A stretch of 47,652 nt of DNA, taken from positions 1 to 47,652 of the forward strand of contig JBNRMN010000030.1 of assembly GCA_050309605.1 (NCBI GenBank), read 5' to 3'. Below the pieces are notes generated by a model that searched no databases, was not told the origin of the DNA, and saw only the letters and a list, made by a program, of their open reading frames with translations. Origin of the DNA: Anaerohalosphaeraceae bacterium (lineage in GTDB: Bacteria; Planctomycetota; Phycisphaerae; Sedimentisphaerales; Anaerohalosphaeraceae). The position numbers and the translations under genes are program-made. Positions 11,307 to 15,740 of this stretch are shown here, in pieces; position 1 is the first letter of the stretch, and every line of letters begins with the position of its first letter.

Positions 11307-11584
11307 CGCCCGTTCTCCGGCTGTTCGGCTTGGTCTGGCCCCTGATCATCCTGATCCTCTTCATAGACGGCGGCCCGGCTGAGCACCGCCCTGGCCCGCT
11401 CCACATCGCTTTCAAAGACCTGCACATCCACCGTTATCACAGTCGGATACGGCATATTGACCGCCAAATCCAGCCCGGCCAGCGTGCAGGCGATGCCCTC
11501 GTTTTCCAGCGCCAGTTTGGCCACTTCCGCATCGAAACCGGTTTCATAACGGGCAATCGTAACGAGTTTTTCATGTTCACGCAT
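11303..11584 (-). CDS. DUF2007-like putative signal transducing protein
   Basis: EKLVTIARY...AEVAKLALENEGI...VQVFESDVERARAVL. Overlaps the trpS stop and the scpA start (coupled). Confidence 0.75.
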   Translation of the reverse strand: MREHEKLVTIARYETGFDAEVAKLALENEGIACTLAGLDLAVNMPYPTVITVDVQVFESDVERARAVLSRAAVYEEDQDDQGPDQAEQPENGR

Positions 11585-12554
11585 TTCGTTTTTTCCCCAG
11601 CCCGACCGCGTCGCGCACGCGCTGCATCGTCTCGGCGGCCACCGCACGCGCCCGCTGCGCACCCTGCGTGAGCACCTGCTCGACATAATCGGGATTGTGT
11701 TCGAGGTCCTGTCGTTTTTGGCGGTAGGGACGAAAATAATCGCACAGCAGTTCCGCCACACGTTTTTTTACCGTGCCGTAACCCACACCGCCGGCGCGGT
11801 ATTTCTGTTCCCACTCGGCCAGTTCGGACTCGTCGGCTGCGAGCCGCAGCAGTGCAAAAAGCGCACACTTATCCGGGTCTTTGGGGTCTTCTACGGGTGT
11901 GGAGTCGGTGACGATGCGCATCACTTTTTTGCGAAGGGTCGCTTCCGGCTCAAAAATCTCAATGGTGTTGTTGTAGCTTTTGCTCATTTTGCGGCCGTCC
12001 GTGCCCGGCACGACTGCGACGGATTCGAGAATTTGCTCCTCCGGAATTACAAAGGTCTGCCCGTACTGGGCATTGAATTTGAGTGCAATATCGCGGGTCA
12101 CCTCGATATGCTGCTTCTGGTCGGCTCCGACCGGCACCAGTTGACTGTCAAACATCAGGATGTCGGCCGCCTGCAACACCGGATAGGCAAACAGGCCGTG
12201 ATTGGGCGAGAGCCCCTGAGCGACCTTGTCCTTGTAACTGGTGCACCGCTGAAGCAGCCCCAACGGTGTTACGCACGACAAAATCCACGCCAACTCTGTT
12301 ACGTCCGGCACATCCGACTGACGCCAGAACACCGTCTTTTCCGGCTCCAGCCCCAGCGCCAGATAGTCCATCGCCACCTCCCGCGTCCGCGCGGCCAAAT
12401 CGGCCGGCGCCGGATTGCTCGTCATCGCATGATAATCGGCGATAAAATAAAACCCCTCATGATCGGTCTGCAATGCCAGATGCTGACGCATCGCGCCGAA
12501 ATAATTACCGATATGCAGCTTGCCTGACGGCTGAATTCCCGATAATATTCGCAA
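11577..12554 (-). CDS. trpS: Tryptophan--tRNA ligase
   Basis: SGIQPSGKLHIGNY (HIGH), YPVLQAADIL, VPVGADQKQH and KMSKS. Start probably TTG 12554 after GGAGG (alternative GTG 12566). Confidence 0.97.
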   Translation of the reverse strand: MRILSGIQPSGKLHIGNYFGAMRQHLALQTDHEGFYFIADYHAMTSNPAPADLAARTREVAMDYLALGLEPEKTVFWRQSDVPDVTELAWILSCVTPLGLLQRCTSYKDKVAQGLSPNHGLFAYPVLQAADILMFDSQLVPVGADQKQHIEVTRDIALKFNAQYGQTFVIPEEQILESVAVVPGTDGRKMSKSYNNTIEIFEPEATLRKKVMRIVTDSTPVEDPKDPDKCALFALLRLAADESELAEWEQKYRAGGVGYGTVKKRVAELLCDYFRPYRQKRQDLEHNPDYVEQVLTQGAQRARAVAAETMQRVRDAVGLGKKRNA

Positions 12555-12593
12555 ATTGACCTCCACAATAAAAATGGCTTATGTGAACGCATA

Positions 12594-12622
12594 AAAGTAC
12601 CATTCCGAACCGCAAAAGTCAA
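12594..12622 (-). promoter_or_regulatory. Putative promoter of the trpS operon
   Basis: Minus strand TTGACT-17 bp-TACTTT. Confidence 0.55.
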
Positions 12623-12715
12623 CCCGTTACCCGTATTCGGCGACAGTCATCGCCTTTTGATTTAGAGACCACAAATGTCTTTATATGAAATCGCAAAGTT
12701 GCCTCTATATTTTTC

Positions 12716-12790
12716 TTGACGAAACGGCATAAATCGGTATGATTATTGTATCCTTATCTATTAGCGAGATCATATACATCTTGTTATGAT
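12716..12790 (+). promoter_or_regulatory. Tandem putative promoters for the rny leader/ncRNA
   Basis: TTGACG-16 bp-TATGAT (12716-12743) and extended -10 TGtTATGAT (12782-12790), immediately before the structured region. Confidence 0.55.
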
Positions 12791-12795
12791 AAAAT

Positions 12796-13151
12796 GTCGG
12801 GAATTCCGGTTCAGGTGGTCCGTTTAATCACCTGCCGGTTGATGCAATTTGCCGAAAGCAGGTTGTAAGCAGAGCTTCAAGAACATCGATCTTTTTCGAT
12901 GGGGCGAGAGGCGGTTAAAGCAAAAAGATGTCCGCCAAGTCCAAAAATCGACAAAATCGATGAAAATGGTCAGATGAATGATGGGACGATAAGCCATTAC
13001 GGCGGTGTGACACTGTGAAAACGTTGTCAGTTTGGGATCGACCCCCAAAGGGAACCGATGGTAAAATGCTGTAAACAGTTCGAATGTCGGAGGTTACAAA
13101 CCGCACGCCGAAACCGATGGATCGGCCAGCGCGGGTTTTGTTTGTCCTGAC
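12796..13151 (+). ncRNA. Candidate large structured RNA / rny 5' leader (family not recognised)
   Basis: No credible CDS. About ten consecutive hairpins, two with GAAA-containing loops. The ends GTCGGGA/TCCTGAC can pair, and the region begins about 6 nt after a -10 box. Confidence 0.55.
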
Positions 13152-13266
13152 TTGATAACGTCCATTGTTTGTCCATTTCTTGTTTTTCTGCTGGAGTGCC
13201 GTTTCCCCTGCTTTGGCAAATGAAGATACTCTATCCAATCTGCCAAGAAGGGAAGGTTAAAACGAA

Positions 13267-14847
13267 ATGGACATGATTGCTCAAGCGAATGGGCAAATGG
13301 CGGTGTTATGGATTTTCCTCGGCCTGCTTGTCGGCGGCATTCTGGCTGTGGTCATCCAGCAAATCATCATCAAGACACGCGCCAAAGCCTTTGAAGAAGA
13401 ACTGAACGCTCGCGTAGAAACGGCCCGCAAACAGGCCGAGACCATCATCAAAGAAGCCAAACTCGACGCCGCGGCCGAGATGATGAAAAAACGGGAGCAA
13501 TTTGCCACTGAAACCGCCGCCAAAGAAAAAGAGCTTCGAAATCAGGAATTGCAGCTTTCCAAACGGGAAGATGCCCTTGATCGGCGAAATGAACAGCTCT
13601 CGCAGCGGGAGCGAAAGGTTAATGAAAGCGAAAAAGACCTTGCACGTCAACTTCAAAGCTGCCAGGACAAAAATCGCGAATTGAACTCGCTGCTGAGCCA
13701 GCAGAAAAACCAGCTTCTCAAAATCACCTCGCTGAATATGGAACAGGCCCGCGAACTGCTGCTCGAGCGTCTGGAAGATGAATGTCAGCGCGAGATGAGC
13801 CAGCTCATCCAGCGCAAAGTCGCTCAGGCCGAAGAGCAGGCCGAAGAAAAATCCAAAGAAATCATCAATCTGGCGATCCAGCGGTACGCCGCCGAGCAGA
13901 CCTGCGAAATCAGTGTCTCGATGGTGGATATCCCTAATGATGACATGAAGGGTCGCATTATTGGGCGGGAAGGCCGCAATATCCGGGCGTTTGAAAAGGC
14001 CACCGGCGTCGATGTCATTGTCGATGACACGCCGGGTGTGATCGTGGTCAGCGGATTTAATCCGGTTCGCCGGGAAGTGGCGCGGCTGAGTATGGAGCGG
14101 CTGATTCAGGACGGACGCATCCACCCGACCCGCATTGAAGAAGTCGTCAATCAGACCAAAAAAGATGTACACAGTCGGGTTATTCAGATTGGCAAAGAAG
14201 CCGCTGAGGAAGTGGATGTCCGCGGTCTGAATAATAAGATCATCGGTATGCTCGGCGCGCTGCATTACCGCACCAGCTACGGCCAAAACGTGCTGCGGCA
14301 CAGTGTGGAAGTGGCGTTTTTGGCCCAGGTCATGGCCGATGAGCTGGGACTGGACGGGACCATCGCCAAACGCGCCGGCCTGCTGCACGACATCGGCAAG
14401 GCGATGGACCGCGAAATCGAAGGCGGCCATCCGGACATCGGGGCCAATTTCCTGCGACGATTTAAGGAATCGCCGATTATTCTGAACGCCGTGGAAGCTC
14501 ACCACGGCGATATTCCGGCCGACAATCCCTATACGCCGTTGATCGCCGCGGCCGATGCCATCAGTGCGTCGCGCCCGGGCGCTCGACGCGAAACCCTTGA
14601 GCGCTACATCAAGCGGTTGGAGAAACTGGAAGATATCGCCGGTGAATTTGACGGTGTGGAAACCAGCTATGCGATTCAGGCCGGCCGCGAGGTCCGCGTG
14701 ATTGTCGATGCCCAGAAAATCAGCGACGATGCCGCGTATAAAACCGCACGCGATATTGCCAAAAAAATCGAAGAAGAAATGACCTATCCCGGCGAAATCA
14801 AAGTCACGCTGCTGCGCGAGGTGCGGTGTATCGAATATGCGCGGTGA
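13267..14847 (+). CDS. rny: Ribonuclease Y
   Basis: N-terminal TM, coiled coil, KH domain ([14 protein letters not shown]), HD domain ([35 protein letters not shown]). Confidence 0.97.
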
Positions 14848-14888: not shown

Positions 14889-15740
14889 ATGAAGATTAAT
14901 GTGCTTTGCGTGGGCGATGTGGTCGGTCGCCCCGGACGTCGAATCCTGGCGCAGAAACTCGGCGGTGTGGTGCGGGAACTGGACGTTGACTGCGTGATTG
15001 TCAACGCCGAGAATGCCGCCGGCGGCTCGGGTCTGACGCCGCAGATATACGACAAATTGTGCAAGTACGGCGTGCACCTGATTACCCTCGGCGATCACTG
15101 CTATCGCAAGCGTGAGATTATCCCGACGCTCGAAGCCCAAAACAACATCATCCGCCCGGCCAATTTGTCGCCAAACTCCGCGGGTAAAGACGCCGCCGTG
15201 TACCACACCGCCAAAGGCGTCAGCGTCGGTGTGGTCACCCTGATCGGACGCATTTATATGAAGCCGGCGGACTGCCCCTATGCCAAAATTGATGCGATTT
15301 TGCCGCGGCTGCGCAATGAAGCGGATGTGATTTTTGTGGAGATGCACGCCGAGGCCTCCAGCGAAAAGGTCGCCATGGGCTATTATCTGGACGGCAAGGC
15401 AAGCTGTGTCTTCGGCACGCATACCCACGTGATGACCGCCGACGAACGCATCCTGCCCAAAGGCACCGCCTGCATCACCGACATCGGCATGACCGGTGCC
15501 CACGACAGCGTGCTCGGACGCAACCCCGAAAGCGTTGTCAAGGCCTTTCGCACCCAAATGCCGTTTCCGTTTGACATTGCCACCCGCGACGTGCGAATCA
15601 ATGCCATCCTCGTTACCGTGGATTCCCGCACCAAACGAGCCGAACAGATTCGCCGACTGGTCATTGCCGAAGACGCCGACAGCGACGCCCTGGCCTACGA
15701 CAGCGACGACGGCCGTCCGGATTACTGCAACGGCTTTTGA
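14889..15740 (+). CDS. ymdB: YmdB/TIGR00282-family metallophosphoesterase
   Basis: GDVVGRPG, NAENAAGG, TLGDH, RPAN, HAEASSEK, GTHTHV, TDIGMTG; canonical position after rny. Confidence 0.92.
   Translation: MKINVLCVGDVVGRPGRRILAQKLGGVVRELDVDCVIVNAENAAGGSGLTPQIYDKLCKYGVHLITLGDHCYRKREIIPTLEAQNNIIRPANLSPNSAGKDAAVYHTAKGVSVGVVTLIGRIYMKPADCPYAKIDAILPRLRNEADVIFVEMHAEASSEKVAMGYYLDGKASCVFGTHTHVMTADERILPKGTACITDIGMTGAHDSVLGRNPESVVKAFRTQMPFPFDIATRDVRINAILVTVDSRTKRAEQIRRLVIAEDADSDALAYDSDDGRPDYCNGF

Follow-up and report, generated by a model that had tools for sequence, protein, structure and literature searches.

The window analysed here is a stretch of 47,652 nucleotides (nt) from an Anaerohalosphaeraceae bacterium (GenBank assembly GCA_050309605.1, contig JBNRMN010000030.1, positions 1 to 47,652 of the forward strand). 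Between trpS and rny, the gene for RNase Y, this window contains a gap of 700 base pairs (bp) that carries a conserved, structured RNA element, which is very probably a cis-acting leader of rny. The genes and the features of this leader are listed in Table 1.

The original prediction, made from the sequence alone, had found no credible coding sequence in the gap, and our results agree. A Pfam search of the open reading frames (ORFs) in the gap gave no match, and the translated matches of these ORFs in relatives are fragmented, fall into several frames of either strand and lie over the conserved core described below. Fragmentary matches of this kind indicate conserved non-coding DNA and not a gene; together with the absent Pfam matches, they rule out a coding reading of the gap. 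The sequence elements listed in that prediction all lie where it had placed them, including TGtTATGAT at 12782-12790, TCCTGAC at 13145-13151 and a repeated 8-mer. A terminator-like hairpin with a T-run is also found at 12639-12654 (+ strand), between the trpS start and the rny promoter; no + strand gene lies upstream of it.

Table 1. Genes and leader features of the trpS-rny region, in window coordinates
Feature	Position	Strand	Remarks
trpS	11577-12566	-	divergent from rny
sigma-70-type promoter	-35 12716-12721, -10 12738-12743	+	conserved; transcription predicted to start near 12750
predicted 5' leader of rny-ymdB, ~517 nt	12750-13266	+	promoter to rny AUG
extended -10 of the original prediction	12782-12790	+	present in window, unconserved
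hairpin H1	12806-12838	+	double changes at 3 of first 5 pairs (RNAalifold, 5 genus members)
hairpin H2	12843-12867	+	local hairpin; 12847-12862 alternatively outer 5' strand of long-range helix
core motif, 118 nt, one long irregular hairpin	12866-12983	+	covariance models R1, R2
core 5' flank	12868-12883	+	middle (12868-12874) and inner (12878-12883) 5' strands of long-range helix; pairs 13186-13192 and 13177-13182
core P1	12884-12890 with 12956-12962	+	covariation
core middle helix	12897-12899 with 12948-12950	+	covariation
core GGGC/GUCC helix	12902-12905 with 12939-12942	+	covariation
core invariant internal loop	12906-12909 and 12937-12938	+	unpaired, conserved
core P4 (GGCGG/CCGCC)	12910-12914 with 12932-12936	+	covariation; tip variable
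variable middle domain	12984-13170	+	sequence poorly conserved, length kept
GC-rich hairpin and U-rich run	13098-13146	+	terminator-like in this genome only; -13.8 kcal/mol, then GUUUUGUUU
pyrimidine-rich box	13171-13192	+	partners: core 5' flank or start-codon/Shine-Dalgarno (SD) region
outer 3' strand of long-range helix	13207-13222	+	overlaps 5' arm of SD-proximal hairpin
SD-proximal hairpin	13213-13218 with 13241-13246	+	genus alignment and RNAalifold
initiation region	13247-13272	+	purine-rich SD 13247-13256, AUG 13267-13269
rny (RNase Y, 526 amino acids [aa])	13267-14847	+	Pfam RNase_Y_N, KH_1, HD
ymdB-like phosphoesterase gene	14889-15740	+	second gene of rny-ymdB unit; Pfam YmdB, E = 4.5e-97

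The conserved core and its range

The element belongs to a new, uncatalogued RNA family that is restricted to Sedimentisphaerales and is located only before rny. A comparison with Rfam, which the original prediction had proposed, leaves the region without a known family: Rfam 15 gave no match in the whole window at gathering score, and at E<=10 the sole match in 12500-13400 is the Na+ riboswitch model at 13.2 bits (cut-off 40.5), which is noise. A DNA search with the gap matched four of the six other genomes of the genus; all of the close relatives compared are metagenome-assembled genomes (MAGs). When five members of the genus are aligned, the block 12843-12990 is strongly conserved, the middle of the leader is variable and conserved blocks reappear near the start codon. 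Profile searching extended the conserved block to other genera. At its centre is the 118-nt core, both flanks of which are conserved, with a variable P4 tip; the isolated core sequence folds into the structure obtained by comparison.

The core structure is carried by covariation. An unfitted MAFFT alignment of 11 sequences yielded, with RNAalifold, an irregular hairpin of 20 pairs, 9 of which have double changes. Among 70 distinct sequences (85 matches), 91.5% of the core pair cells are paired, compared to 33-38% when the partners are slid by 1-3 columns; 14 of the 20 pairs have double changes, and cells with double changes number 199 versus 34-65 after sliding. None of 500 shuffles reached the observed covariation, and the set of 43 matches gives the same picture. 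The 85-match alignment was fitted to the model and hence leans toward it, and its sources were chosen as earlier matches; this bias is tempered because the unfitted MAFFT alignment agrees. Conservation and covariation among relatives, on which the original prediction had staked its RNA, are thus found, and they are found in the core.

At least 97% of the 70 distinct sequences share several bases of the internal loop and junctions (GGCGA-AG, C-AGUC and UGA). The core also contains an invariant G-U pair and many U-G pairs, which identify the + strand as the RNA strand. Against the covariance model, the core scores 121.5 bits in the window and 62-121 bits across genera in which the rest of the leader cannot be aligned. 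Between the core flanks, the column pairs show no covarying run that would form a short local helix. A K-turn was considered for the GAAA/AA internal loop and set aside as a misfit to the K-turn consensus.

The covariation redraws part of the row of local hairpins that had been proposed for this region. GGCGG/CCGCC (12910-12936) is retained as P4, but both CATCGA/TCGATG (12884-12901) and ATCGA/TCGAT conflict with the covarying pairs: the partner of CATCG at 12884 is CGATG at 12958-12962 and not the nearby TCGATG. Even the nearest relative lacks the hairpins placed between 12967 and 13049.

Folding energies were compared with those of shuffled sequences, a further control named in the original prediction. 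The stretch 12796-13160 beats most shuffles (z = -2.08, 2 of 100 as good), but the opposite strand does equally well (z = -2.10), so that folding energy decides neither strand nor function. The full leader (12750-13275) has a minimum free energy (MFE) of -167.2 kcal/mol, with a z of -2.98 that none of 100 shuffles equals, and the core alone has a z of -2.41 (4 of 200 shuffles as good).

The core is common in one Sedimentisphaerales family (Anaerohalosphaeraceae by record titles) and rare in sister families. The window's own genome has one match only. In a sample of 151 genomes of the order, 45 have the core, always as one match each; by family these are 41 of 43 genomes in f1, 2 of 2 in f6, 1 of 26 in f5 and 0 of 79 in the others. 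A sample of the class gave 14 of 14 for f1 and 0 of 136 for twenty other families, in a search with strict filters by which weak matches were possibly lost. When 80 named loci around rny homologues were combined with six earlier ones, there were 16 matches among the 86 at E<=1, of which 15 fall below 0.001, and the RNase Y of all 16 is at least 66% identical to that of the window; no core was found in those of the 86 loci titled Phycisphaerales or Tepidisphaerales.

Linkage of the core to rny is exclusive. In 43 of 43 genome loci, rny lies downstream of the core on the same strand, and the core end is 202-331 nt from the rny AUG (230-295 nt in 41 of the 43). A pattern scan of metagenomes returned 82 stretches; 80 loci were examined and 35 are true model matches. 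Of these, the 32 whose downstream DNA is long enough all encode RNase Y, 265-290 nt after the core; the other 3 are too short to judge. No gene context other than rny was seen in the 43 genome and 32 metagenome loci, which partly overlap and are related, making these counts non-independent.

Some variants and outlying cases were noted during these searches. Other Sedimentisphaerales (L073, L077, L080, L081, L086 and L092; ~1030-1280 in each) carry a diverged core, which sits ~230-330 nt before rny; in this form, the first GGGC/GUCC pair is swapped to C-G, the internal loop reads GAUA and P4 reads GAGA/UCUC. In one genus (L018, G020/G112/G151) the match is ~170 nt long versus ~118 nt, with an insertion of ~55 nt in the P4 tip. 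Other families of the order (L025, L027, L035 and L038) have gaps of 500-800 bp before rny with neither long ORFs nor a core match, which may carry unrelated leaders. L074, L078, L079 and other motif-bearing MAGs are titled Pirellulales or Gimesia maris; their RNase Y proteins (72-77% identical) and leaders group with Anaerohalosphaeraceae, and the titles are probably mislabelled taxonomy.

Promoter, long-range helix and initiation region

The promoter at 12716-12743 scores 10/12 in a consensus scan and reads TTGAC-N17-TAtgAT in the genus alignment. TTGAC and the -10 are kept in 5/5 genus members and in 11/11 sequences from several genera. More broadly, 34 of 43 loci have a TTGAC-N16-19-TAnnnT site upstream of the core, ending 88-129 nt before it (14 nt in L020), and the predicted leaders of these 34 relatives are 406-517 nt in length. 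Transcription, as predicted from the sequence, probably starts ~45 nt upstream of the start originally proposed, which had been deduced from the extended -10 at 12782-12790. This second site is not conserved as a promoter: a -10-like hexamer is present at its place in L011 only and is absent in L010, L013 and L014. The stretch that holds it (12760-12795) aligns poorly with four genus relatives and may be a strain-specific insertion or may include a second, strain-specific promoter.

RNA libraries contain pieces of this locus, all of them assembled contigs at a depth of 2-3 that are informative neither on ends, strand nor level. The polyA RNA-seq library X19 has an exact 301-nt contig over 12860-13160 and another contig in ymdB. 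X20, a source rated 'probably DNA', has exact pieces over 12913-13063 and 13074-13224, and X18 has pieces in trpS, rny and ymdB, with none in the leader. At this depth, neither the contig ends at 12860 and 13160 nor the uncovered stretches can be taken as evidence of RNA ends. The contigs over the leader are compatible with its transcription.

Upstream of the core, H1 had been proposed earlier and is upheld by its double changes within the genus. H2 fares less simply, as other genera also have a hairpin at this place, but a different one. The repeated 8-mer (12793-12800 and 13083-13090) and the closing helix between 12796 and 13145 that was built on it are absent from the closest relative; by our own arithmetic, ~2 such 8-mer pairs are expected by chance in ~500 nt. 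Terminator-like sites (hairpin and U-run) occur between the core and rny in 7 of 43 leaders, at scattered positions, and transcription attenuation was rejected on this ground as a conserved mechanism. With no conserved terminator between the core and rny, the element is a leader and not a separate gene.

Two sets of helices connect the region before the start codon to upstream sequence. These were assessed by RNAalifold, by pair counts and by duplex-energy permutation tests, with RNAalifold run separately on three groups (g1, the window's genus; g2 + g13; and g34-type). The first set is a long-range helix of three colinear segments, 12878-12883/13177-13182, 12868-12874/13186-13192 and 12847-12862/13207-13221, with energies in the window of -4.7, -9.4 and -22.3 kcal/mol from inner to outer. 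The outer segment is kept in 5/5 genus members (-17.4 to -22.5 kcal/mol), where changes in the H2 loop are matched on the far strand, and the middle and inner segments appear in the window's unconstrained MFE structure. The pyrimidine-rich box that supplies the inner and middle 3' strands is conserved in the genus and recognisable in several other genera.

Evidence for the long-range helix extends across the family. Duplexes between the core flank and its own downstream partner score -12.96 kcal/mol, versus -10.62 kcal/mol for mismatched combinations (0/5000 permutations). Of 37 non-redundant sequences, 25 have the best partner of the flank 60-95 nt ahead of the AUG; when the flanks are shuffled, the mean number is 8.3 and the maximum 15. 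In the g34 group (7 sequences), 24 long-range pairs are 91% paired versus 45-59% when slid, and 8 pairs have double changes versus a shuffled mean of 2.6 (0/500). In the g2 + g13 group (7 sequences), 30 pairs join both core flanks to the pyrimidine-rich stretch; these are 96% paired versus 46-62% when slid, with no double changes. A helix of the 3' flank (12976-12985 with 13161-13170) is predicted by RNAalifold in the window's genus, and such a helix emerges independently from two genus groups that differ in sequence.

The second set involves the initiation region. In the window, 13171-13179 is the exact complement of 13264-13272, which holds the AUG. The whole family retains an SD of the GAAAGG type and ATGGA, and the initiation region can pair with an upstream strand in 37/37 sequences (approximately -13 to -33 kcal/mol). 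Matched duplexes score -22.7 kcal/mol versus -18.4 kcal/mol for mismatched ones (0/5000 permutations), and the consensus initiation-region helices are 87-93% paired versus 35-65% when slid. The SD-proximal hairpin carries a double change in one member of the genus (column pair 488/515). In the g1 and g2 + g13 consensus structures, the long-range and initiation-region folds use the same bases; the overlap in the g34-type group rests on single-sequence duplexes only, the alignment of the initiation region being poor there.

Proposed regulation of rny and alternative explanations

A conserved promoter, a covarying core, an exclusive linkage to rny at a fixed distance and both sets of complementarity are present in this leader, which is conserved and structured, lies directly upstream of rny on the same strand and is separated from it by no conserved terminator. 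We propose that transcription starts at the promoter at 12716-12743 and that the leader would fold into a 5' sensor domain around the 118-nt core hairpin. The pyrimidine-rich stretch 50-95 nt before the AUG would then have two possible partners. Pairing with the purine-rich core 5' flank and the preceding hairpin would form the three-segment helix closing 12847-13221, a large domain with the core at its base, and leave the ribosome-binding site (RBS) free, while pairing with the Shine-Dalgarno sequence and start codon would block initiation. A binder of the invariant core loops would set the balance between these two folds, and binding or cleavage of the leader by RNase Y would constitute feedback. 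In this model the two folds would alternate in vivo, and the output would be either translation or mRNA stability.

Taken as a whole, a ~520-nt rny-ymdB leader with a core, alternative folds that control the RBS and feedback most plausibly by RNase Y is the reading that we favour, with moderate confidence. RNase Y itself is the leading candidate for the effector, plausible rather than probable, and would act by binding or cleavage as in the Escherichia coli and Bacillus subtilis leaders compared below; the core occurs once per genome and only before rny, which makes feedback by the gene's own product the most economical choice of effector. An autoregulatory or switching leader of ~470 nt had been among the options of the original prediction. 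Its architecture holds (a promoter, a fixed distance to rny and two competing helix sets), but the partners in the folds are different and the start probably lies ~45 nt upstream.

Several observations weigh against the proposed regulation. Within single genera, the RBS helix has too few double changes to beat shuffles, and the overlap of the two folds in individual sequences (27 of 37 share at least 4 bases) is about at chance level. In the MFE structure of the window, the inner long-range segments form while the initiation region is paired in another way; as this structure contains parts of both folds, the two states need not be mutually exclusive. Their predicted energies are also close: -174.5 kcal/mol unconstrained, -171.8 kcal/mol with the long-range helix forced and -163.0 kcal/mol with the box-AUG pairing forced. 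At least one genus (L020), whose promoter ends 14 nt before the core, lacks H1 and H2. The support from RNA libraries consists of a few contigs at depth 2-3, one source of which is rated 'probably DNA', and the transcript start, read-through and regulation are all predictions. Finally, a search of the genome for RNase J returned nothing above the curated cut-off (best match 23.6 bits versus 400, at G000:C89:62608-62766), and the exonuclease half of the Bacillus subtilis mechanism described below is therefore not simply transferable. The same genome does encode an RNase E/G-family protein (G000:C89:36058-36870, - strand, locus L234; 340 bits, 539-aa open frame). With this homologue present and RNase J lacking above the cut-off, a different nuclease could take part.

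In one alternative, the core would be a riboswitch aptamer that recognises a small molecule or ion, with the competing helices as expression platform, and RNase Y synthesis would be tied to a metabolite. The invariant bases of the internal loop and junctions amid covarying helices are those of an aptamer-like domain, and the alternative pairings around the SD and AUG, in a gap with no protein-coding signal, would suit such a switch. A riboswitch class is usually found before several genes of one pathway; leaders confined to a single gene are typical of feedback by that gene's own product. Here, several gene contexts would be expected but rny alone was found (43/43 and 32/32 loci), with one copy per genome; moreover, the core resembles no Rfam aptamer and the operon suggests no candidate ligand. 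We consider a riboswitch unlikely for these reasons. The broader version, in which the core is either the aptamer of a new riboswitch class or a protein-sensing switch that gates RNase Y translation through the 330-nt long-range helix, is likewise doubtful. If it were true, a cellular signal would directly tune global mRNA decay in these anaerobic Planctomycetes, in addition to the activity of the enzyme itself.

It is similarly improbable that the leader is passive, with a fold that sets constitutive low translation, protects the mRNA or melts with temperature and that answers to no specific effector. In its favour, all sequences tested have their initiation region paired, the predicted energies of the alternative folds are close enough that no switch is demanded, and the RBS of B. 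subtilis rny likewise lies in a strong structure (PMC10303841). What a passive leader leaves unexplained are the invariant unpaired bases, the retention of the core at 62-121 bits amid unalignable leaders and the matched co-variation of two competing sets of partners.

Least likely is a discrete, stable RNA, terminated or processed before rny and acting in trans, such as the large non-coding RNA at a '6S-like position' of the original prediction: the terminator-like hairpin and U-run at 13098-13146 and the library contig of exactly 12860-13160 would fit it, but terminator-like sites are present in 7/43 leaders only and are scattered, the distance to rny is fixed, an X20 piece continues to 13224, the fold is branched and not a rod with a central bubble, and neither 6S nor any other Rfam family matches here, 6S being encoded on another contig.

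The RNase Y-feedback leader that we favour would act on a central enzyme, as RNase Y starts most mRNA decay in bacteria that use it. We know of no RNA-decay biology for the phylum Planctomycetes. A family defined by its model, structure, range and competing helices makes the control of RNase Y level in these bacteria directly testable.

Comparison with known systems

A full-text literature search found no rny leader outside Firmicutes and nothing for Planctomycetes; control of RNase Y level is known in print only for B. subtilis. There, the rny mRNA has a 164-nt 5' untranslated region (UTR) with the RBS in a strong structure, feedback occurs through RNase Y cleavage in the leader and first codons, and the mechanism needs RNase J1 (PMC10303841). 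The two systems share the gene and the rny-ymdB unit, a long leader and an RBS that is structurally buried. They differ in leader length (164 nt versus ~520 nt), and neither a conserved structured core nor a long-range helix is described for B. subtilis. The B. subtilis mechanism also needs RNase J1, whereas no RNase J is above the cut-off in the genome studied here.

Like 6S RNA (RF00013), the element has its own promoter and is non-coding and intergenic. 6S RNA, however, is a rod of ~180-200 nt with a large central bubble, whereas the core is an irregular hairpin within a branched domain of ~375 nt and is fused to rny. The 6S model has no match in 12500-13400 at E<=10, nor in the whole window at gathering score. 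The 6S RNA of this genome lies at G000:C20:45929-46114 (- strand, locus L233), with 49.6 bits against a cut-off of 46.4.

Translational riboswitches and other SD-sequestering leaders resemble the rny leader in having a sensor domain and a strand that can pair with either the sensor flank or the SD and AUG. In contrast to translational riboswitches, the element described here has a single gene context and a long-range span of ~330 nt, which is much beyond that of usual expression platforms.

The 5' UTR of Escherichia coli rne (Rfam rne5) is a long structured leader that has a conserved stem-loop with an internal loop and mediates feedback by the enzyme. Both leaders precede the gene of the main decay-initiating endonuclease. 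The enzyme in E. coli is RNase E and not RNase Y, the rne5 model has no match in the window, and feedback is a proposal for the leader described here. A structured leader of a ribonuclease gene is thus of a known kind; what is new in this case is the family, its size and the 330-nt long-range helix.

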